From positions 1,070,558-1,134,557 of the forward strand of contig LNEM01000030.1 in the NCBI GenBank assembly GCA_001464955.1: DNA of 64,000 nucleotides, in the 5' to 3' direction. The notes beneath the pieces were generated by a model that was not told where the DNA came from, ran no database searches, and was given only the letters and a program-made list of their open reading frames with translations. The position numbers and the translations under genes were made by a program. This document shows, one piece after another, positions 27,971-38,729 of this stretch (the first letter of the stretch is position 1; the number at the start of each line of letters is the position of its first letter). Source of the DNA: Rhizobiales bacterium Ga0077537. GTDB lineage: Bacteria; Pseudomonadota; Alphaproteobacteria; Rhizobiales; Hyphomicrobiaceae.

Positions 27971-29215
27971 ATGGCAATCGGTACGGAGCGCTCGGAGCGC
28001 ACGGCCGCCGGCCTGTTGGGAGAAGCTGTTCACCGCAATCGCACGCTGTCCCGCGAAGGTCTGCTCGAGCGCATGTTCACGCTCGCCTTCAGCGAACTGG
28101 TCTACCCCCAGATCTGGGAGGACCCTCGCGTCGACATGGAAGCGCTGGCGATCCAGCCCGATTCGCGCATAGTGACCATCGCGTCGGGTGGCTGCAATCT
28201 GATGAGCTACCTCGTCGCCGACCCGGCCCGCATCCTGGCCGTCGACCTCAATCACGCCCATATCGCGCTCAACAAGATGAAGATCGCGGCCGCCCGGCAT
28301 CTGCCGGATGTCGAGGCCTTCCGCCGCATGTTCTTCGACGCGGCCGATCCGGCGAACGTCGCCGCCTACGACACGTACATCGCTCCCCATCTCGATGCCA
28401 CCTCGCGCGCCTATTGGGAAGGCCGAGACAAGCTGGGCCGTCGCCGCATCACGGCGTTCTCGCGCGGCTTCTACAAGACCGGCCTGCTCGGCCTTTGCAT
28501 TGCGTTCGCCCACGGTGTGGCGCGCATGTATGGCAAGGACCCGCGGATCATGCTGACGGCCAGATCCCTGGCCGAACAGAAGACGATCTACGAGGCCAAT
28601 CTCGCGCCGCTGTTCCAGAAGAAGCTCGTGCGCAAGATCCTCGGCAACGAGACGTCGCTCTATGGGCTAGGCATTCCGCCGGCGCAGTACAAGGAATTGC
28701 TCGGTGATGCGCCGCACATGGCCGTCGTCGTCGAGGAGCGCTTGCGCAAGCTGGCCTGCGACTTCGACCTGAAGGACAACTATTTCGCGTGGCAGGCATT
28801 CAACCGGGGCTACGCACCGGGTCCAGATGCGTCCGTCCCGCCCTATCTGGAGCCGGCCAACTATCCCCTGATCAAGGCCCGCGCCGACCGCGTCGAGATC
28901 AACCATCTGACCTTTACCAAGCTGCTCCAGCGCGAGCCTGATCGATCGCTCGACCGCTACGTGCTGCTCGACGCGCAGGACTGGATGGATGATGCGACCT
29001 TGACCGAACTCTGGGTCGAGATCACGCGCACGGCACGGCCGGGCGCGCGCGTCATCTTCCGCACTGCCGGCACCGAGACCATCCTGCCCGGTCGTGTACC
29101 CGAGACGACGCTCGGCCGCTGGCACTACGAGGCCGAAGACTCGCGTCGCTGGTCCACTGCCGACCGATCGGCCATTTACGGCGCCTTCCACCTCTATGTC
29201 CTGAAGCCGGAGTGA
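27971..29215 (+). CDS. btaA: S-adenosylmethionine:diacylglycerol 3-amino-3-carboxypropyl transferase BtaA (DUF3419)
   Basis: LLERMFTLAFSELVYPQIWEDPRVDMEAL and IASGGCNLMSYL are typical of DUF3419/BtaA. 414 aa. Followed by an overlapping methyltransferase gene. Confidence 0.8.
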   Translation: MAIGTERSERTAAGLLGEAVHRNRTLSREGLLERMFTLAFSELVYPQIWEDPRVDMEALAIQPDSRIVTIASGGCNLMSYLVADPARILAVDLNHAHIALNKMKIAAARHLPDVEAFRRMFFDAADPANVAAYDTYIAPHLDATSRAYWEGRDKLGRRRITAFSRGFYKTGLLGLCIAFAHGVARMYGKDPRIMLTARSLAEQKTIYEANLAPLFQKKLVRKILGNETSLYGLGIPPAQYKELLGDAPHMAVVVEERLRKLACDFDLKDNYFAWQAFNRGYAPGPDASVPPYLEPANYPLIKARADRVEINHLTFTKLLQREPDRSLDRYVLLDAQDWMDDATLTELWVEITRTARPGARVIFRTAGTETILPGRVPETTLGRWHYEAEDSRRWSTADRSAIYGAFHLYVLKPE

Positions 29216-29871
29216 CCGGGATGGCGAGCGAAAGTCATGCCGAGCACCTCGACCGCAACTATCGCTACCAGCGCCACGTCTACGATCTGACGCGCGAGTA
29301 CTATCTTCTGGGGCGCAAGCGCCTGATCGCGGGGTTGAACCCGCCGAAAGGTGGCAGCGTCCTCGAGATCGGCTGCGGCACAGCCTTGAACCTCATTCGG
29401 GCGGCGGCGCGTTTTCCGGACGCCCGCTACTACGGCGTCGATCTCTCACGCATGATGCTCGAGACCGCCGAGGCCGCGTTGGCGCGCCGGAAGCTCGAGG
29501 GCCGGATCAAGTTGGCCCTCGGCGACGCGACCGACTTCGACGCGCGGGCCACCCTGGGACAGGCCGAGTTCGATCGTGTCTTTTTCTCCTACTCGTTGTC
29601 CATGATTCCGCCCTGGGAGGCGGCGCTCGACCACGCGGCCGGCCTCGTCGCGCGCGGCGGCAGCCTGCACATCGTCGATTTCGGTGGCTGCGAGCAGCTT
29701 CCGGCGTCGGCCAAGCGGATACTCTATTCGTGGCTCGCCCAGTTCCGCGTCACGCCGCGTGAGGCCCTCGAAGCCGAGCTGACGGCCCTGTCGAACCGGC
29801 ACGGCCTTTCTCTGAATTTTGAGCGGATTTACCGGGGCTATAGCTACTACGCCGTGCTAAAGCGCAATTGA
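29212..29871 (+). CDS. btaB: class I SAM-dependent methyltransferase BtaB (DGTS synthesis)
   Basis: SAM motif I VLEIGCGTALNL. 4-nt overlap with btaA. Size (219 aa) and context fit BtaB. Confidence 0.75.
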   Translation: MTGMASESHAEHLDRNYRYQRHVYDLTREYYLLGRKRLIAGLNPPKGGSVLEIGCGTALNLIRAAARFPDARYYGVDLSRMMLETAEAALARRKLEGRIKLALGDATDFDARATLGQAEFDRVFFSYSLSMIPPWEAALDHAAGLVARGGSLHIVDFGGCEQLPASAKRILYSWLAQFRVTPREALEAELTALSNRHGLSLNFERIYRGYSYYAVLKRN

Positions 29872-30778: not shown

Positions 30779-31563
30779 CGAGCGACCGTCCGCATCCCCC
30801 GACGCGGCCTATCGTCTTGCCGGGCGCGGGGGCTGGCACTCCGTCGCTACCGGCCCGCTTCTACAAGTCCGTGACGGTTGCCGAAGCAGGCGACGGCAAG
30901 GGCTTCGCTGTCCTGCTCGATGGCCGCACCGTGAAGACGCCGGCCCGCCGCAATCTCGAGGTGCAGGCGCGCGGCCTTGCGGAGGCGCTGGCGGCCGAGT
31001 GGTCGGGGCAGCAGGCCGTGATCGATCCGGCCGCGATGCCCTTGACACGCTTGGTCAACACCGCGCTGGACGGCGTCGCTTCACGGACCGCCGAGGTTGC
31101 GGCCGACATCGTGAAGTACGCCGGCAGTGATCTGCTCTGCTATCGGGCGGACTTCCCGGAAGGCCTGGTGGAGCGCCAGACTGCGCTCTGGGACCCCGTC
31201 CTTGCGTGGCTCGCAGCGCGAACTGGATGCCAACTCCGGGTACAGTGCGGGCTGATGCACGTGGCGCAGCCTCAGGCTGCCCTCGATGCCTACGCGGCCG
31301 CCGTGGCCGATCTCGACGCGTTCTCGCTGACGGCGATGCACGTGATGACGACACTCACCGGCTCGGCTGTACTGGCCTTGGCCGTTCTCGAAGGCGAACT
31401 CTCGCCCGAGGCCGCATGGGAAGCGGCCCATGTCGACGAGGACTGGCAGATCTCCGAATGGGGCTCGGACGACGAAGCCATGGCCCGCCGCGAGCGCCGC
31501 TGGACGGAGATGCAGGCCGCCGCCAGACTGGCCCGGCTCGCAGTCGCGCGCGACGAGGCCTGA
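30775..31563 (+). CDS. ATP12-family F1-ATPase assembly chaperone
   Basis: RFYKSVTVAE...GFAVLLDGRTVKTPARRNL and MPLTRLVNTALD match ATP12-family proteins of alphaproteobacteria. 4-nt overlap with the HAD gene. Confidence 0.8.
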   Translation: MTSDRPHPPTRPIVLPGAGAGTPSLPARFYKSVTVAEAGDGKGFAVLLDGRTVKTPARRNLEVQARGLAEALAAEWSGQQAVIDPAAMPLTRLVNTALDGVASRTAEVAADIVKYAGSDLLCYRADFPEGLVERQTALWDPVLAWLAARTGCQLRVQCGLMHVAQPQAALDAYAAAVADLDAFSLTAMHVMTTLTGSAVLALAVLEGELSPEAAWEAAHVDEDWQISEWGSDDEAMARRERRWTEMQAAARLARLAVARDEA

Positions 31564-31589
31564 TCATCGCAAGTTGCGCGGCGATGATC
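31562..31589. terminator. hairpin between convergent ATP12 gene and coiled-coil gene (bidirectional terminator candidate)
   Basis: GATCATCGC-N10-GCGATGATC, a 9-bp perfect stem filling the 27-nt gap between the stops at 31563 and 31591. Confidence 0.4.
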
Positions 31590-31590
31590 G

Positions 31591-33039
31591 TTAGAAGCTG
31601 CCGCCGGTCTCGAAATCCTTGCCCGATGAGCCGCCGCGCTTGCCGCGCCCCCCTCCGCCACCCCCGCCACCGCCGTCACCAAAGATGCCCCCCCAATCGG
31701 ACGGGAAGCCATCGAACGGCGGCAGTCCCGACCGTCGGCGCCACGGATCGGCGGGTCGGTGGCGCCAGCTCTGCTGCATCTTCATGCGCATCCAGTAGTC
31801 CGCCGCCGTGATCGCGCCGCGCAGCAGCAGCTGCAGGAGATCCTCGGTCCGCGATGAATCGTTGAATTGCGACCCGACGTCGTCGTAGCGCTGACGTCGG
31901 AAGTCGGTCGCCACGCGCGACAGGTCGAGACGCTTTTCCGCGATCTGGTCGAGCAGTCGTCTGCGGCCCTTGATGCGCTCCTCGATATCCTCGAGCTGAT
32001 TGGCGAGCTTCGTGATCTGCTCCACGGCGCGGTCGTCTTCGCTGCCCGGGGTGGCGCGTGCGTCGGCCATCAGTCGGCGCGGCGGCTCCCGGTCCAGGAA
32101 CGTCGCGTACGAAGCCACGGCCGAGATGAATGACGAGTCCTCGCCTTTCGCGTAGATGCGGAGCTGGTTGCCGGTCTCGGCGAGCTCGGAAGTGATGCGT
32201 TCGAGGTCCTTCCCGAGCGCGCTCTGGGCGTCGCGCTGGCGCGTCAGCTCCCCCACGAGATCGGCGCCGGCCAAGGCCAGCGTTCGCTCGGCCTCGAGCA
32301 TCTCGATCTCTCCGGCGAGACCGTCGTTGCGCCGTGAGAGGTCATCGGCGTGAGCCCTCAGCCGCACCGGGATCTCGGTCAGCATCGCATAGTTGGCTCG
32401 GGCATCCGTGTACTTGACGAGCCCGGCAACCCACTGGTCGAGAACCTTCACCAGGCCGGTGGCCGTATACTCGGCCGAGCCGAACTTCCGCTGCCACAGG
32501 TACATGAACAGCGGATCGCCCCGATACGGCGCGCCCTTTTCCTGCTCGTCGAGTGCGGCCCGCTCAGCTTTCTCTTTCGCGCGCGCATACGTCTCGGCGG
32601 CGTCGTTCCTCCGCTGCACGAGGTCGGCGTAGGCGCGATCGGTCGCGAGGGCGGCGCGCGCCTCCGAAGCGACCCGGTCGAGCCGTTCCTCCAGTGCCGC
32701 GATCTCGCGCGTCAGCGCATCTTGTCGGGCGACGTGGCGGTCGCGTTCGGCTTCGGCCGACACGTGCCGCTCCTTGAGCTGCAAGATGGTCCGCTGGCGC
32801 GCCTCGAGAATGGTGCGCACTTGATGCGAGAGATTGTCGGCTTCGTCGATCACACCGTCGGAGAAGGCGTCCCGGGCCCGGATGGAGGCAAGCTCCCGCA
32901 TCGCGTCGAGGCGATCGGCGACGAGGCTCGCCCGCTCCTTGTTGGCCTCTTCGAGTTCGCCTTGAAGTGCTGCTTCCTGGGTCTTGAGGTCCCGGAGAGC
33001 GTCTTCGATCCCCGATAGCGTGTCACGGCCGTTCTGCAT
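31591..33039 (-). CDS. coiled-coil protein with C-terminal poly-glycine tail (hypothetical)
   Basis: Start chosen at ATG 33039 (MQNGRDTLSGIEDAL), 1 nt after the upstream gene's TAG, with GAGGTGG as RBS. About 300 aa of heptad-rich sequence, a conserved-looking core PYRGDPLFMYLWQRKFGSAEYTATGLVKVLDQWVAGLV, and the tail GDGGGGGGGGGRGKRGGSSGKDFETGGSF. Confidence 0.65.
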   Translation of the reverse strand: MQNGRDTLSGIEDALRDLKTQEAALQGELEEANKERASLVADRLDAMRELASIRARDAFSDGVIDEADNLSHQVRTILEARQRTILQLKERHVSAEAERDRHVARQDALTREIAALEERLDRVASEARAALATDRAYADLVQRRNDAAETYARAKEKAERAALDEQEKGAPYRGDPLFMYLWQRKFGSAEYTATGLVKVLDQWVAGLVKYTDARANYAMLTEIPVRLRAHADDLSRRNDGLAGEIEMLEAERTLALAGADLVGELTRQRDAQSALGKDLERITSELAETGNQLRIYAKGEDSSFISAVASYATFLDREPPRRLMADARATPGSEDDRAVEQITKLANQLEDIEERIKGRRRLLDQIAEKRLDLSRVATDFRRQRYDDVGSQFNDSSRTEDLLQLLLRGAITAADYWMRMKMQQSWRHRPADPWRRRSGLPPFDGFPSDWGGIFGDGGGGGGGGGRGKRGGSSGKDFETGGSF

Positions 33040-33040
33040 C

Positions 33041-33976
33041 CTACCACCTCGTGAGCGCGCCACCGGACACCTCGCGCCGCCACTGAGGCTCGGTGTAGCC
33101 TTGTGGTTTGCTGCCGAGAACGGCTTTCTGGATGATGCCGTCATCGAGTTTGTCGGCCTGGATCTCGTCGAACACCGACTTGGGGACCCGGATGGCCCAC
33201 TTGGTGACGCGCTCTCTCTCCCCCGTCTCTTCGTTCAGGATGTCGCGGACGATCGTCTTGCCACCCGGTTCGACGGCTTCGACCACGAGATAGTAGTTCC
33301 GGCTTCCCGGATTGATGCGCGGCACGCGCCAGAGGCCGGAGACTTCGCCCTGCCGGTTGAGGATACGGACGTCGAACGCCAGCCGAAGCTCGTCGAGGAT
33401 TCCCTTGAGCTTTGCCTCGGCTGTCCGTGCCGCGCCGACGTCGCCGCCGCTCGCGGCCGAGCGGGCTGCGGCCCCGAGCTGTTGCGCCTCTGCGCGGATG
33501 CTTTCTACCCGGGCCTCGCGCTCGATCTGGCCCAGCAGGTTGGTGATGCGGGCCGGCAGAGCCGTGCCGAGTTCCTGCTTCAGGCTTGCCTGCTCCAACG
33601 AGCGCGGACGCTCGACGGCCAGATACCAGCCGCCGCCGGCCAGGAGGGCGGCAATCCCGATCCCGGCGGCCTTGCGTCCCCACGTGCCTCGCGAAACATA
33701 GAGTTTCGCGAGGCTCACCTGCGCCGACGGCGGCGGCGGCGTGTAGGCGAACCGCTTTTCCTCCAGCGCCTTGACGCCTTCCTCGAGGATGCGGTCCGGA
33801 ACCTCGATACCCTGGCCCTTGTAGATGGCGCGCAGTCGCTCGATCAGGTCCGCGCGCCGGCTGTCATCGTTCAGTTCACGCTCGAGAATGCGCTTGTCGT
33901 GACGCAGCGTATCCACCACGTCCATCGCGATCATGACGTCGTCGAGTGGCCGTGATGGAGGCGCCTCAGTCTGCAT
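33041..33976 (-). CDS. single-pass membrane protein (hypothetical; DUF6384-like by recollection)
   Basis: N-terminal LDDVMIAMDVVDTLRHDKRILEREL...YKGQGIEVPDRILEEGVKALEE, TM AAGIGIAALLAGGGWYLAV, and a roughly 180-aa C-terminal domain. The family name is from memory and unverified. Confidence 0.6.
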   Translation of the reverse strand: MQTEAPPSRPLDDVMIAMDVVDTLRHDKRILERELNDDSRRADLIERLRAIYKGQGIEVPDRILEEGVKALEEKRFAYTPPPPSAQVSLAKLYVSRGTWGRKAAGIGIAALLAGGGWYLAVERPRSLEQASLKQELGTALPARITNLLGQIEREARVESIRAEAQQLGAAARSAASGGDVGAARTAEAKLKGILDELRLAFDVRILNRQGEVSGLWRVPRINPGSRNYYLVVEAVEPGGKTIVRDILNEETGERERVTKWAIRVPKSVFDEIQADKLDDGIIQKAVLGSKPQGYTEPQWRREVSGGALTRW

Positions 33977-34012
33977 TGCGGTCCTCGGGATACGGGGTCA
34001 ACGCCGGGGCGT

Positions 34013-35170
34013 TCAGAGTTCCGCTGCGTCGGTTGCGAGTTTGGCGAGCCGGCGCTTGCCGTCTTCCACGGCCTCGTTGATTTCCTCGGAGTTGCGGCTC
34101 GCCATCACGCGCATTTCCTTGATGATCTGCCGCGACCGCTCCTGGAAGCCGACGATGGAGTCGACGAGCTTCTTCACCGCATCCGCGCGCACCGTCGGTC
34201 CGTAGCCGGCCTTCACGGCAGCTTCCTGCACCTGATTGCCGATTTCGCCGATGGTCTCGAGGCTCTCCGAGACGCCCTTCTTCATGGCTTCCAGCGTCGC
34301 GGTCGACTCGTGCAGCCCGAACAGCCCCGTGAACGACGCCTTGAGCGCCGTCAGAACCGCCTCGTTCGTCGAGAAGAACGTGATCGCCTGCTGATAGACG
34401 CGCTCCTTCGCGTTCGTCGTTTGCAAGAGACGCGTCATGATGACTTCGGTCGTATTGTAACCGATGGTCAGATTGTCGGCGAGATCCTTGGCGATCTGGT
34501 AGCGCTTGTCCTCGTCCTGCATGGCGCGCAAGGCCTCGTCGCGCTTCAGTTCGAGGCGCGCCCGCTCGGCCGGCTCGGTGCCCGCGAACGTGGCCACGGC
34601 TTCACTCGCGGACGTTAGCGCGGTCTTCGTGGCTTCGAGTTTCGCCTCGGCCGTCTTCAGGACTTCGAGCGAGAGGATCTGGGCCTGCTTGTAGGCGCCG
34701 CGATAGTCCTGATAGGCGGCGAGGATGCGCTGCTCGCGGCGGATCTGGTCGGCGCTGTCGGCCGCGACGGCGAGATAGGTCTTCTGGATCTTGTCGAACC
34801 GCTCGGCGACATCGCCGCGCGAGACCTTCATCCAGACATTGTTGACCCGTTCGAATGTCGAGATCCGCCCATCCTCGAGCTGATCCACCATCGACTTCGC
34901 GTCGGCCCGGATCGAATTGAAGCTTTCGACGATGTCGTTGTACCGCTCGCCGATCTTCATCGCCGAGATTTCGTTGCGCACGATCTCGTTGAACGTCGAG
35001 GCTTCCGCGAGCGTGCGCGCGATCACGGTGATCTTGTCCTTGTCGAGATCGGCGATGGTCTCAAGCAGCGCGACGATCGGATCCTGACCCGAGCTTTGCG
35101 CCTTCAGCCCCATGTCGCGCACGGTCGTCAGAGCCTTGTCTAGGTATTGCAGGGCGGGCAGATTGGCCAT
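34013..35170 (-). CDS. TelA-like (toxic anion resistance family-like) all-helical protein
   Basis: Trimmed to ATG 35170 (MANLPALQYL). 385 aa, no TM or signal peptide. The segment order (FNSIRADAKSMVDQL...FERV...RFDKIQKTY...QRILAAYQDY...) parallels TelA/YceH-type proteins as I recall them. The assignment is tentative. Confidence 0.45.
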   Translation of the reverse strand: MANLPALQYLDKALTTVRDMGLKAQSSGQDPIVALLETIADLDKDKITVIARTLAEASTFNEIVRNEISAMKIGERYNDIVESFNSIRADAKSMVDQLEDGRISTFERVNNVWMKVSRGDVAERFDKIQKTYLAVAADSADQIRREQRILAAYQDYRGAYKQAQILSLEVLKTAEAKLEATKTALTSASEAVATFAGTEPAERARLELKRDEALRAMQDEDKRYQIAKDLADNLTIGYNTTEVIMTRLLQTTNAKERVYQQAITFFSTNEAVLTALKASFTGLFGLHESTATLEAMKKGVSESLETIGEIGNQVQEAAVKAGYGPTVRADAVKKLVDSIVGFQERSRQIIKEMRVMASRNSEEINEAVEDGKRRLAKLATDAAEL

Positions 35171-35916
35171 GGATGGTCTCCGTGATGCGGACGGCGCGGG
35201 CGGGAACGTCGTGCAGCCGACATGTGTACGCCGGACCCGCGCGTCAAGTTCCGGATGCCGCTCGATCCTAATACTGCGGCCGCGCACACCCGGCAAATCG
35301 TCCGTTTACATCGCCCCTGCTTGCCGCCCAGTGCGCGCGGCTCGAACAGCTGTCCACCGTCCTCGAGAACACCGGCCTCGACCTCCCTGATCGCTGCCAG
35401 GGGATACTAAAAAACTGAACGAGAATATTGAAATAAATGGAAAATTCGGAATGCCAGTCATCCGCTGCGCCACAATCTGTCCATATTGCAACGTGCACAT
35501 GCATCGTCAGGGACGGTCGCAAGCAGCCCCCGAAGCTGTCGAGCCAGCAGACGCACGGCGCGACAATCGGGAGGTGACGAGGGGAACCGCGTCGCGACTG
35601 TAATGAGGGGGGTGGCCCATCAGCCGTCGGTGGCTCGCGCGTTGCGAAACCGCCTGGCCTGCCCATTCGGGCAGTCGATCGTTACGAGGGGACACTCGAT
35701 GCCGCTAGTCGAACCGTTTTCATAGTTCCGACCTTCCACCGCCAACGCGCAACACCGGTTGAGTGACGCCTTTGGGCGTGTCGCAGGCCCTTGTGGGCAG
35801 GCGAGGCGTGCTGCTGTGGCTTCACGCTGATCATCAGTCCGACGCGCAGTCGTCACGCCGGGGCAGCCTCGGCGATCGATGGCGCGCGGCCGACAGGGTT
35901 CGAAGGAAGGAAAGTC

Positions 35917-37689
35917 ATGTCGCTGAGACCATCGATATCGCGCCCGCCGCGCTCGGACGCGGGCCTTGTCGTTCTGCACGGGTTGGTCGTCCTCGCATCG
36001 GCCGCGCTGCTGGTGACGGGAATTGCCATTGCGGCCGATCATCCGGATCGGCAATGGCTTCGCGCCTTCGAGGCCGTCCTCCCGTCAGGTGATGTCTGGA
36101 GCATCCACCTTTGGGCGGGTGTGGTTCTGATTTCGGTCGCAACCGCTTATCCGGCCTATATCCGCGCGACCGGCGCCAAGCGGCGGATCGCCTTCGACCG
36201 CATGCGTCTCCTGGCGCTGCGCTGCCCTGGCCAGGCCCGCCGTGCGGCGATGAATGTCGCCGTCTACTGGCTCGGCTTTGTCCTGCTCCTGTTGCAGCTC
36301 TCGACCGGCATTCTGCTGTATCTCGGCTGGGGTGGGCAGACGGTGACACTGCACTACGTCGGCGCGCTGGGGCTTGGCGCGTTCGTCCTGATCCACGTCA
36401 GCGCGCAATTCGCCTACGGCAGATCCCGGCAACTGCTGCGCATCGTGCGTCCGGGTCCCGTCACCCTGCCCTCCGTCGAGCCGTCGCTGGCCGATCTGGT
36501 CAGGCTGGGCGTCGAAAAAGCCGAACGCCAGACGCCTGCTGCACGGAGCGCAAGGCTCCATCTCCACCCTCTGACGGTCGGTGGCCTTTGCCTCGTCGTC
36601 GGTTCGGTCACCGCCGTTTCGCTCGACAACACCGGTCGGCCGACGCTGCGCATCGCGGCGATCGAGCAGGCCGATGCACCCCTGCTCGATGGCGACATCG
36701 ACGATCCGGTGTGGCGACTGGCGACGCCCGTCACCGTCGACACGCATCAGGGGGCGAATTTTTCCGGCACCGGCAGCGCGTCCGTCACGATCCGCGCCGT
36801 GCATGACGGCACGATGGCCTACCTGGCATTCACGTGGTCCGACCCGACGCGATCTCTGAAGCACCTTCCCCTCGTCAAGAAGGAGGACGGCTGGCATCTC
36901 GCCCACACGCGGTACGACGTGGAGGACGAGAACGCCTACTACGAGGACAAGTTCGCGGTCCTGTTGGCCGAAGAGCCAACGATGCCGGCCGGCGGCTCGA
37001 TCCATCTCGGACGACAGCCCCTGTCGGACAAGCCCGCGGCGCTGTCCGGGCGTGGGCTGCATTACACGACGGACGGCTCGATCGTGGACGTCTGGCATTG
37101 GAAGGCGACCCGTGGCGGCCTGCTCGGCTACGTCGACGACAACTACTTCGGTGGTCCAGTCGACCCGAAGCCGGCCGAATCCGCCGGCCAGTCGCGCTAC
37201 AAGGCCGGCTACCGCACCGATCCCGGCAAGGCGTTCTACGCCAACAACTTCGCGCACCAGCCACCCGCCGGTTACGCCGGCTCGCTTCAGCCGAAGCGGT
37301 TGCCGCTCAACTTCGCGTTCCAGCAGAACGCAATGGCCCGCATTGATCTCGATCCCGCCAAGAGCGAGACCTCCGAAGCGCGCTGGTGGATGACGGCCGA
37401 CGAGAGCCAGCCCTATTCGATCGAGGCCGATGCCCTCATTCCGGTCGGCACCGTCATCCCGGGAATCCTGATTGCGGGCGCCTACACCGGCGATCGCGCC
37501 GACATCAGATGCGCCGCGCGCTGGCATGCGGGGCGTTGGACACTCGAGCTTTCCCGTCGCCTCGACACTGGCTCCACGCATGACGTCGCCTTGCGATCCG
37601 GCGTCGCGATGTGGGTCGCCGCCTTCGACCACACACAAACCCGTCACACACGTCACATGCGTCCTGTCATTCTGGAGGTAGTCCGATGA
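35917..37689 (+). CDS. membrane cytochrome b fused to an ethylbenzene-dehydrogenase-like (EB_dh/DOMON-type) heme-binding domain
   Basis: Trimmed to ATG 35917 (GGAAGG RBS). Five TM segments with His in HGLVVL, IHLWAG, LHYVGA and IHVSAQ. The C-terminal domain with IRAVHDGTMAYLAFTWSD and VDVWHWKATRGG is typical of EB_dh-related proteins. Confidence 0.7.
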   Translation: MSLRPSISRPPRSDAGLVVLHGLVVLASAALLVTGIAIAADHPDRQWLRAFEAVLPSGDVWSIHLWAGVVLISVATAYPAYIRATGAKRRIAFDRMRLLALRCPGQARRAAMNVAVYWLGFVLLLLQLSTGILLYLGWGGQTVTLHYVGALGLGAFVLIHVSAQFAYGRSRQLLRIVRPGPVTLPSVEPSLADLVRLGVEKAERQTPAARSARLHLHPLTVGGLCLVVGSVTAVSLDNTGRPTLRIAAIEQADAPLLDGDIDDPVWRLATPVTVDTHQGANFSGTGSASVTIRAVHDGTMAYLAFTWSDPTRSLKHLPLVKKEDGWHLAHTRYDVEDENAYYEDKFAVLLAEEPTMPAGGSIHLGRQPLSDKPAALSGRGLHYTTDGSIVDVWHWKATRGGLLGYVDDNYFGGPVDPKPAESAGQSRYKAGYRTDPGKAFYANNFAHQPPAGYAGSLQPKRLPLNFAFQQNAMARIDLDPAKSETSEARWWMTADESQPYSIEADALIPVGTVIPGILIAGAYTGDRADIRCAARWHAGRWTLELSRRLDTGSTHDVALRSGVAMWVAAFDHTQTRHTRHMRPVILEVVR

Positions 37690-38729
37690 GTCACATCTGT
37701 CAGATCCGAATTGGCGAACAGGTCATCACGGCCCGCACCGGTGACCGCCTTCTCGATGCGGCGCTCATGAATGGCTGCGACTTGCCGCACGACTGCCGCT
37801 CCGGGCGTTGCGGCACGTGCGTGGTGAAGGTCCGAAGCGGTCTCGTCATCGGTGGCGAGACCGGGACCCCGGGCGTCGTTCAAGCCTGCCAGGCTGTGGT
37901 CTTGTCCGATCTCGAGGTCGATCCGCCCGAGATGGAGGACCCGTCGGCAGTGTCGGGCAAGGTGGCTTCGATCGAGCAGCCATCGCGTGATGTTGCCGAG
38001 GTGGCGATCCGCGTGGCTCGTCCGCTGGCGTGGCGACCGGGGCAATACGTCAACGTCACCTTCGGTGGCTTCCCGGCGCGCGCGTTCAGTCCGACGGTCG
38101 CGCTCGATGGAGGTGATCGCCCCGGCATTCTGCGACTTCACATTCGCCGCCTGTCCGGTGGGCGGGTCTCGGGTGAGATCGGCCGCGCCATTCAGCCGGG
38201 GCATCCCGTGGTCCTGCAGGGGCCGTATGGCTCGGCGTACTATCGCCCGGAAGAGCCTGGCCGGCTTGTGCTGTTCTCCAGCGGAACCGGCTTTGCGCCG
38301 ATCTGGTCGATCGTCGACGCGACGATGCGCCGCCAGCCGGGGCGTCCCATGCTGCTCGTCGTCGGCTCCCGTTCGATCTGCGGCTTCTATATGGCCTCGG
38401 CGCTCGAGCGGCTGTCCCGCTACCCGCATGTCACCATTTACCCGGTGGTCGGCGAGCGCCATTCCCTCGGCAGTGCCGTCCATATCGGCGATCCGGCAGA
38501 TCTTTCGCACATGATCTCCCGCGGCGATGTCGTGCACGCCGCCGGAGCACCCCGTCTGGTGGCGGCGTTGTCGATGGCGGCGCGCAATCTGGATGTCCCC
38601 TTCCACGCCGACCCGTTCACACCGGCCGTGGACGCGTCATTCCCGTCGACCCGGGGCCTGATGGATCGCCTGCGTCGCGTGGCCGGCGCCGTGCTCCCGG
38701 CACGCCAGGCTGAGACCGCGCCGCGCTGA
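37686..38729 (+). CDS. 2Fe-2S ferredoxin / FAD / NAD(P)H oxidoreductase (FNR-like reductase)
   Basis: ATGA overlap with the upstream gene. Plant-type cluster motif CRSGRCGTC...C, FAD motif RAFSP, GGRVSG, and NAD(P)H motif LFSSGTGFAP. Confidence 0.8.
   Translation: MSHICQIRIGEQVITARTGDRLLDAALMNGCDLPHDCRSGRCGTCVVKVRSGLVIGGETGTPGVVQACQAVVLSDLEVDPPEMEDPSAVSGKVASIEQPSRDVAEVAIRVARPLAWRPGQYVNVTFGGFPARAFSPTVALDGGDRPGILRLHIRRLSGGRVSGEIGRAIQPGHPVVLQGPYGSAYYRPEEPGRLVLFSSGTGFAPIWSIVDATMRRQPGRPMLLVVGSRSICGFYMASALERLSRYPHVTIYPVVGERHSLGSAVHIGDPADLSHMISRGDVVHAAGAPRLVAALSMAARNLDVPFHADPFTPAVDASFPSTRGLMDRLRRVAGAVLPARQAETAPR

Follow-up and report, generated by a model that had tools for sequence, protein, structure and literature searches.

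A conserved three-gene unit encoding a predicted TelA-fold protein, a DUF6384 membrane protein and a coiled-coil protein in an alphaproteobacterium

What a cell gains from three adjacent genes for uncharacterized helical proteins, and whether the first of these proteins belongs with TelA, were the questions raised by an operon at the center of a 64,000-nucleotide (nt) stretch of the Rhizobiales bacterium Ga0077537 genome (contig LNEM01000030.1; the whole stretch is referred to as the window). An initial annotation, made from the letters of the DNA, had described the three products, here termed A, B and C, as a TelA-like protein, a single-pass membrane protein and a coiled-coil protein, respectively, and had compared the operon with the kilA operon of plasmid RK2. 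The three open reading frames (ORFs) were confirmed by an ORF list and by the public annotation of this same Hyphomicrobiaceae-type metagenome-assembled genome (MAG; GCA_022844185.1), in which the calls were identical at 385, 311 and 482 amino acids (aa); the shorter starts of A and C were backed by alignments of homologues, which use the same methionines. The genes are:

34013..35170, minus strand: gene A, 385 aa, delimited by ORF and start
33041..33976, minus strand: gene B, 311 aa, bitopic membrane protein of the DUF6384 family
31591..33039, minus strand: gene C, 482 aa, coiled-coil protein of an unclassified family

The firm part of the answer is the anatomy of the triad, namely linked genes, one membrane anchor and two soluble helical partners, whereas the steps of its mechanism can be proposed conditionally. 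By analogy with TelA modules, of which the triad would be a distant functional cousin, we propose, at somewhat short of an even chance, that A, B and C form a single complex, anchored in the inner membrane, whose task is to maintain or protect the cytoplasmic membrane under stress.

The triad as a conserved unit and its mobile carriers

To map the distribution of the triad, a single genome of each GTDB species was scanned; more than 516 species (a lower bound) were found to have a relative of A, and 80 species loci, all close relatives, were kept. Alphaproteobacterial species with the unit number in the hundreds. The A-B-C order and strand were identical in all 80 loci wherever the contig was long enough, and the recurrence of the same order in every locus with enough flank is more than would be expected by chance. 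When all flanking ORFs of these loci were clustered, no fourth conserved gene was detected, and the neighbors recovered were clade specific. Thus, the three genes are strongly co-conserved across genomes and constitute a self-contained unit, as the initial annotation had supposed. The three proteins differ in their degree of conservation, with median identities to the window proteins of 66% (A), 45% (B) and 32% (C). A is soluble, all-helical and the most conserved of the three; these medians indicate, at the level of sequence, very strong purifying selection on A, as is usual for proteins that make many contacts. Homologues of A fell into at least 7999 clusters at 90% identity and into 645 clusters at 50% identity (E-value ≤ 1e-3), the latter figure being derived from an exhaustive profile search of 1.84 billion representatives, while 2298 homologues were found for B and 135 for C.

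The linkage was also found to withstand changes of context. In two distant metagenomic/MAG loci (L098 and L100), gene A lies divergent from the B-C pair; the DUF6384 B proteins encoded there (481 and 496 aa) and the C proteins (490 and 492 aa) keep the hallmark motifs and tails, so the linkage survives rearrangement in distant lineages. Three apparent A-B fusions of the Rosetta-stone kind (P0399, P0482 and P0501) were discarded, as out-of-frame stretches between their A and B segments mark them as frameshifted assemblies. Triads with an A that is 65–68% identical to that of the window were also observed on seven contigs labeled as Acidobacteriota, Flavobacteriaceae, Chromatiaceae or Lamprocystis MAGs (L023, L037, L041, L044, L049, L067 and L082); these contigs are probably alphaproteobacterial in origin and mis-binned, or else they point to transfer. 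A distant A-like protein of 442 aa (L096, 6001-7329; E-value 2.9e-51 to the A profile) was seen in a very AT-rich organism, with no DUF6384 gene nearby and with three large Lys/Asn-rich proteins without Pfam matches and a UvrD helicase in its flanks; either its partners are too diverged to be recognized or A-like proteins also occur in different settings.

The occurrence of the triad on megaplasmids and in the phage phiR1-37 indicates that the linkage survives horizontal transfer as well. By tblastn, the triad was located on megaplasmids or chromids in Microvirga, Bradyrhizobium, Methylorubrum extorquens AM1 and Rhizobium leguminosarum, and on seven Pseudomonas megaplasmids, including those of IncP-2 type and of pMPPla107 type. 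On the 398-kb conjugative megaplasmid of P. aeruginosa PA83 (L083, 6989-10901), the genes for A, for a DUF6384 protein of 476 aa and for a C-like protein of 447 aa lie side by side. The PA83 triad sits among many small hypothetical genes, and megaplasmids of this kind are clinically relevant carriers of multidrug resistance. Among 50,697 phage records, the whole triad was detected only in the 262-kb Yersinia jumbo phage phiR1-37 (NC_016163; L093, 6974-10805; genes g190 to g192), and scans of IMG/VR returned phiR1-37 itself as the only match. In this phage, (i) the g190 product is 38.5% identical to A over 99% of the length (E-value 9e-75); (ii) the g191 product is a DUF6384 protein (Pfam, 4.7e-26; hhalign, 98.7%); and (iii) the g192 product aligns at the core of C and carries a Ser-rich tail followed by an FSSSDSF end.

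The phage copies were found to be strongly expressed. In the RNA sequencing study of phiR1-37 (PMC4848604, Table S2), the mean TGR, the normalized expression measure of that paper, was in the early, middle and late stages 32,683, 39,000 and 41,993 for g190; 13,922, 14,582 and 16,006 for g191; and 16,261, 20,881 and 24,416 for g192. Within the parts of the table covered here, these values are among the highest, and the three genes carry no temporal class (PMC4848604). The phage annotation places a rho-independent terminator between g190 and g191, and the reads of g190 are about twice those of g191 and g192. In the phage record, g190 to g192 are without the note "phage structural protein" that their neighbors g178 and g196 carry. 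A second phage, the jumbo Dolichospermum (cyano)phage Dfl-JY45 (PP438435; L101, 3978-6709), was found to encode a B-like and C-like pair with no detectable A. Its C-like protein was recognized by hhalign (99.7%, E-value 3.9e-27), and its B-like protein keeps the transmembrane segment, the stalk and the C-terminal domain of B and lacks the conserved N-terminal block. A gene for a DUF6283 protein lies just upstream of this pair.

Comparison with Pfam, NCBIfam, PADLOC, PHROGs and the PDB yielded only DUF6384 for B, in agreement with the proposal of the initial annotation that the operon matches no described system. By sequence, A was found to have no relative in Pfam, NCBIfam, PHROGs or the PDB, and C no family in Pfam or NCBIfam; no PHROGs family and no PDB relative by sequence or profile was detected for any of the three proteins. 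Matches to PADLOC-DB v2 were isolated and weak, with A aligning to the CARF_HEPN model (3e-5 over 107 residues), C to the coiled coils of PbeC and LmuB (1e-4 to 1e-3), and B without a match. Searches of the literature with DUF6384, PF05816 and the database protein names found no paper on this family and none that mentions DUF6384.

Protein A and the TelA fold

The description of A as TelA-like was upheld at the level of fold but not at the level of sequence. Neither A nor 49 diverse relatives matched the TelA family PF05816 at an E-value ≤ 1, with the RK2-type proteins KlaB (3.2e-86) and KlaA (1.7e-10) as positive controls. When a profile of A was aligned by hhalign with a TelA profile of eight sequences, the result was not significant (probability 1.2%, P-value 0.043, score 23.3, 329 co-linear columns); the 31 reversed or shuffled controls scored 13.8–22.8, such that the A-TelA score was only marginally the best of 32. 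The controls all gave short local matches, whereas the A-TelA alignment was the only one that was co-linear from end to end, and it placed a near-invariant RF of A opposite the RFD of TelA. The compactness of the A family, with its 645 clusters, compared with the much larger TelA family (890 plasmid records with a KlaB relative), also argues against A merging into TelA. On these grounds of sequence A is not a member of the sequence-defined TelA family, and such membership was rejected while the resemblance in fold was retained.

The fold was examined with an AlphaFold model of A (m323a38179cc2), which was built on a 50-sequence alignment, reached a predicted local distance difference test (pLDDT) score of 76.5 and a predicted template modeling (pTM) score of 0.70, and replaced an earlier, poor model from a shallow alignment (pLDDT 63). 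In the model, a small helical part at the N-terminus is followed by three very long helices (residues 121-193, 200-294 and 329-384). Residues 286-325, directly after a near-invariant FFSTNEAVLTALKASFTGLFGL, form the only stretch of low confidence (pLDDT < 50). Neither a signal peptide nor a hydrophobic segment is present in A (maximum KD19 of 0.96, where KD19 is the Kyte-Doolittle hydropathy averaged over 19 residues). One part of the model is a candidate "head" that would contact the membrane or a partner:

34181..34387, minus strand: region of A, residues ~262-330, with the near-invariant FFSTNEAVLTALKASFTGLFGLHEST, from alignment and pLDDT

Foldseek comparison of the model with BFVD returned four matches at an E-value ≤ 1e-3, two of which are annotated as toxic-anion or tellurite resistance proteins: the "Toxic anion resistance protein" of E. 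phage VEcB (4.5e-4) and the "Tellurite resistance protein" of Lactobacillus phage Semele (5.2e-4; template modeling (TM) score 0.49). TelA-named proteins of lower rank were those of phiPsa397 (8.6e-3) and Vibrio phage Kuja (TelA-like, 6.6e-2). This comparison sets one predicted model against another, and no TelA structure was among the PDB matches. As modeled, the fold of A is TelA-like, and A may be a TelA relative at a very great distance, such that a relationship between the two survives in the comparison with the viral models.

A and TelA/KlaB proteins (PF05816; RK2 kilA, Listeria lmo1967, Bacillus subtilis YaaN/YceH) are alike in being soluble and all-helical, in their length of about 380 aa, and in the location of the gene beside that of a membrane protein. 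Unlike the TelA/KlaB modules, the partners of A are a DUF6384 protein and C, with no second TelA paralogue, and the conservation of A greatly exceeds that seen within the TelA proteins (24–69% identity). The analogy with the kilA operon had to be abandoned: KlaA is itself a TelA paralogue (PF05816), and B and C resemble neither KlaC nor TelA, as judged by hhalign probabilities of 0.6% for C against TelA and of 0.4% and 0.1% for B and C, respectively, against the protein at the KlaC position. This outcome bears on the possibility that the triad is a genuine tellurite or oxyanion resistance determinant equivalent to kilA/telAB. The TelA-like fold of A would fit such a role, and IncP-2-type Pseudomonas megaplasmids are classically tellurite resistant. 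We nonetheless consider this role very unlikely, since A has no match to PF05816, neither B nor C is related to KlaC or KlaA, and the tellurite resistance associated with TelA is widely seen as a side effect of an envelope function (PMC11765107, PMC12791056).

A different kinship was suggested by the PDB, against which Foldseek gave no match at an E-value ≤ 1e-3 and a list dominated by ClyA-family toxins: MakE (2.9e-3), MakA and Hbl-B (3.7e-3), and SmhB, AhlB, NheA and ClyA (1e-2 to 8e-2), with TM scores of 0.2–0.3. The alpha-pore-forming toxins of this family (tripartite Ahl/Smh/Hbl/Nhe, and Mak) are elongated bundles of very long helices, similar in length to those of A, and some are, like the triad, encoded as three-gene operons. 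An anti-phage defense or abortive-infection module, or a phage or plasmid counter-measure, can therefore be envisaged in which A is a ClyA-like membrane-inserting effector that is restrained by B and C and permeabilizes the inner membrane on a trigger; the self-contained nature of the cassette, its different neighborhood in each clade, and its presence on megaplasmids and in a phage are in line with this. However, we judge such a module unlikely because (i) the ClyA-type matches are weak (E-values of 3e-3 to 8e-2 at the TM scores given above); (ii) A has no hydrophobic head, its maximum KD19 being 0.96; (iii) the PADLOC matches amount to noise of the coiled-coil type; (iv) an identity of 64–91% across families is far beyond that of usual defense effectors; (v) the flanks in the window are housekeeping in nature (ATP12, HAD and lipid genes), and the GC content of the operon is native; and (vi) the very high constitutive expression of the phage copy, as far as the covered parts of the expression table go, is unlike that of a toxic effector. 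Unlike the secreted ClyA-family toxins, A also lacks a signal peptide, B and C are not ClyA-like, and the triad is predicted to be cytoplasmic and inner-membrane bound.

The names given to A in NCBI ("cell surface protein" and "merozoite surface protein 3b") are all that points to a secreted or surface-exposed protein, an idea to which we attach hardly any credence: A has neither signal peptide nor hydrophobic segment, no secretion genes are linked to the triad, and the names most likely arose from the compositional similarity of Ala/Glu-rich helical proteins. The second of these misleading names is used for A on the PA83 megaplasmid.

The partners of A

B was found to be a full-length member of DUF6384 (PF19911), with residues 6-311 aligned to profile positions 3-308 at an E-value of 4.3e-118 (394 bits, above the gathering score). 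DUF6384 is a family without assigned function, and an obligate pairing with the families of A and C is absent from the description consulted. The initial annotation had proposed one transmembrane segment and a conserved N-terminus in B, and both were borne out: the segment was located at residues 103-121, and the motif LDDVMxAMDVVDTLRH was near-invariant in 20 homologues, as was the C-terminal domain. No hydrophobic segment was detected by KD19 in A or C, and an association of the triad with the membrane is plausible through the segment in B. The parts of B are:

33722..33949, minus strand: conserved N-terminal block of B, residues 10-85 (LDDVMxAMDVVDTLRH...GQGIEVPD...RFxYxPP), from alignment
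33614..33670, minus strand: single transmembrane segment of B, residues 103-121, KD19 1.64
33044..33364, minus strand: conserved C-terminal domain of B, residues ~205-311 (RNYYLVVEA...NEETG...KWAVRVP...ADKxDDGIIQ), with an invariant W end, from alignment

The C-terminal domain is present also in the phages phiR1-37 and Dfl-JY45. Across the 20 homologues, the mean net charge was +3.35 for the 15 residues before the transmembrane segment and -0.25 for the 15 residues after it. According to the positive-inside rule, B is therefore predicted to adopt an N-in/C-out topology, with the N-terminal block in the cytoplasm and a variable helical stalk and the C-terminal domain in the periplasm. Because the N-terminal block is absent from the one A-less B-C pair, that of Dfl-JY45, it is a candidate docking site for A.

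C was found to comprise, in order, a coiled coil, a conserved core, a second coiled coil, conserved FRRxRYDD and LLRGAITAAxYW elements, a Gly- or Ser-rich linker of low complexity and an FxTGGxF end. The view that coiled coils surround a core in this protein was substantiated, as KGxPYxxDPLFMYLWxRxYG is its most conserved part and the flanks are helical and coiled-coil-like. The core remains recognizable in phage and distant homologues. The tail was found to vary, ending in FSSSDSF in phiR1-37, in FSSGSGF and FSTGGGGW in the distant loci, and in VTGGGF in Dfl-JY45. Two segments of C were delimited:

32350..32547, minus strand: core of C, residues 165-230 (KGxPYxxDPLFMYLWxRxYGTxxY...LDxWVARLVxYxxARxNYAMLTEIPxRL), from alignment
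31594..31722, minus strand: Gly-rich low-complexity linker and invariant FxTGGxF-COOH of C, from alignment

An SMC-like ATPase was considered for C and rejected, as the NCBIfam SMC matches (E-values of 0.2–0.6) covered the coiled-coil parts only and no P-loop was found in the sequence or in the conserved columns; the label "chromosome segregation ATPase" used by JGI is thus an artefact of the coiled coils.

The junctions between the genes were as first described. The stop codon of B (TAG, 33043-33041) and the start codon of C (ATG, 33039) are 1 nt apart, with the ribosome-binding site (RBS) of C inside the end of B, and the gap between A and B is 36 nt:

33044..33050, minus strand: GAGGTGG, RBS of C within the end of B, from sequence

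Across the loci, the B-C gap had a median of 4 nt and was 10 nt or shorter in 56 of 74, and this short junction points to a conserved translational coupling of B and C. A conserved A-B intercistronic hairpin that would set the stoichiometry was rejected, as the gaps are heterogeneous (median z -0.46).

With A and C both long, helical and rich in coiled coils, a membrane-anchored cytoskeleton or scaffold may also be considered, in which A and C would polymerize on B at a pole, at a division or budding site, or at a phage replication or assembly compartment. The very high conservation of A, the high expression in the phage (in the covered parts of the table) and the fact that many carriers are polar-growing or budding Hyphomicrobiales are compatible with this. 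However, a morphogenesis role specific to one lineage is hard to reconcile with carriage by plasmids of rod-shaped Pseudomonas and by a phage of Yersinia, and no similarity to known bacterial filament formers was found in the Pfam, PDB and Foldseek lists, and so we regard a scaffold of this kind as quite unlikely.

Proposed working of the triad and its surroundings

In the proposed membrane-protection complex, (i) B would span the inner membrane once, exposing its conserved N-terminus of about 95 residues to the cytoplasm and, on the periplasmic side, a helical stalk and a conserved, beta-rich C-terminal domain, where it could sense or bind the envelope; (ii) A would serve as an abundant, soluble, elongated three-helix bundle of the TelA fold that is recruited to the membrane via the N-terminal block of B and contacts lipid or oligomerizes through its invariant 262-330 region; (iii) C would be produced in a fixed ratio with B by translational coupling and act as a coiled-coil scaffold that multimerizes the assembly, docking via its flexible Gly-rich tail and terminal FxTGGxF peptide; and (iv) the assembly would stabilize or repair the membrane. 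Such stabilization or repair would explain the carriage and strong expression of the triad by mobile elements that burden the envelope, such as megaplasmids and a jumbo phage. The role proposed here is also that of PspA/Vipp1 (IM30, ESCRT-III-like), in which a small membrane partner recruits a soluble, helical and abundant protein that protects the inner membrane, and the PspA/Vipp1 response is likewise manipulated by some phage and plasmid elements. The likeness is one of function only, as PspA/IM30 differs in having no sequence or fold match in the Pfam, PDB and Foldseek lists. An assignment of A or C to PspA/IM30/ESCRT-III was itself rejected, with no Pfam match and no PspA or Vipp1 in the top 50 Foldseek PDB matches of A. 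Protection of the membrane is suggested as the role because of the known biology of true TelA: in Listeria, telA (lmo1967) mutants show raised sensitivity to nisin, other envelope-acting antibiotics and tellurite, and the gene is regulated by LiaR and shares its operon with xpaC, which encodes a membrane protein (PMC11765107, PMC12791056).

Several points weigh against this proposal. By its sequence A is not TelA, given the missing PF05816 match and the non-significant hhalign result, and to say that the triad works like TelA explains little in mechanistic terms. The Foldseek matches compare predicted models, among which long helical bundles match each other easily, and every PDB match of A has an E-value > 1e-3. 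The topology of B is predicted solely from the positive-inside rule, and the docking of A on B from a single A-less example. In addition, no stress-type promoter conserved across loci was found upstream of the triad.

A bolder formulation, which we hold to be doubtful, is that the triad represents an unrecognized, widespread three-component inner-membrane machine with a TelA/ClyA-like core on the cytoplasmic side, coupled to the state of the envelope via bitopic B with its periplasmic sensor-like domain and via coiled-coil C with its docking tail, and captured by megaplasmids and jumbo phages to keep the host membrane functional. If true, working it out would offer a first entry to the mechanism by which the TelA fold acts. 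New here is the combination of a predicted TelA-fold protein with two new, obligate partners, the closest known kind being TelA modules, in which TelA has a membrane protein as its partner. Bacteria, plasmids and phages commonly encode TelA-type proteins, which affect resistance to tellurite and envelope-active antibiotics; the triad is a sharply defined, highly conserved TelA-like version with an anchor that has a predicted periplasmic domain and a coiled-coil protein that has a conserved terminal peptide. Natural comparisons are at hand in the chromosomal, megaplasmid and highly expressed jumbo phage copies and in the A-less B-C pair, which makes the role of the predicted TelA-fold protein at the membrane directly testable. 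The triad also gives a context to DUF6384 and to two misnamed families, which appear in databases as "cell surface protein", "merozoite surface protein 3b" and "chromosome segregation ATPase".

The region 5′ of gene A and the sequence that follows gene C were examined for transcription signals:

35171..35916, strand not assigned: upstream intergenic region of 746 nt, with an AT island and a promoter-like block
31562..31589, minus strand: hairpin straight after the stop codon of C, overlapping the end of the convergent ATP12 gene

The intergenic region and its AT island were present as first reported, with the island at 35381-35470 (90 nt; GC 0.40–0.42 compared with about 0.65 in the window). 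A promoter-like block was located about 50–80 nt upstream of A, with CTTGAC at 35243-35248 followed by ...ACACAT, and the CTTGAC...CACA block is common to the three nearest species (L003 to L005). No match to the sigma-70 consensus or to Rfam was found in the upstream region, and a search for a regulatory motif shared upstream of the triad across loci returned only clade-specific k-mers. The sequence GGAACTTGACGCGCGGGTCCGGCGTA at 35227-35252 (minus strand), 82 nt upstream of A, resembles the EcfG promoter of alphaproteobacteria, GGAAC-N16-17-CGTT, a motif with a background rate of 0.003 per 300 nt. An EcfG general-stress promoter was rejected as a conserved feature, as GGAAC-N17-CGTA was found in this species only among the 80 loci and was absent from the other 78 loci, including those of the nearest relatives. 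The hairpin after C was corroborated by folding (9-bp stem, -14.2 kcal/mol, z -2.3); as it lacks a U tract and the terminator scan did not report it, it is best described as a hairpin and not as a canonical intrinsic terminator. The operon and the window are equal in GC content, which gives no sign of recent acquisition.

Within the 64-kb window, no transfer RNA gene and no Rfam family at the gathering threshold was detected, and the many long antisense ORFs of its ORF list are the usual shadows of high-GC DNA. A DUF3419 protein (414 aa) and a SAM (S-adenosylmethionine)-methyltransferase (219 aa) with a 4-nt overlap are encoded at 27971-29871 (plus strand), 1.7 kb from the triad; we take this pair to resemble BtaA/BtaB of betaine-lipid (DGTS) synthesis, a form of membrane-lipid remodeling, and its adjacency to the triad is not conserved in other species. 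Divergent from the triad, at 35917-38729 (plus strand), is a gene for a 590-aa protein with a cytochrome-b-type membrane domain (Ni_hydr_CYTB) and a haem-binding domain (EB_dh), which is followed and overlapped by a gene for a Fer2/FAD/NAD ferredoxin-reductase-type protein; the two constitute an uncharacterized redox pair.

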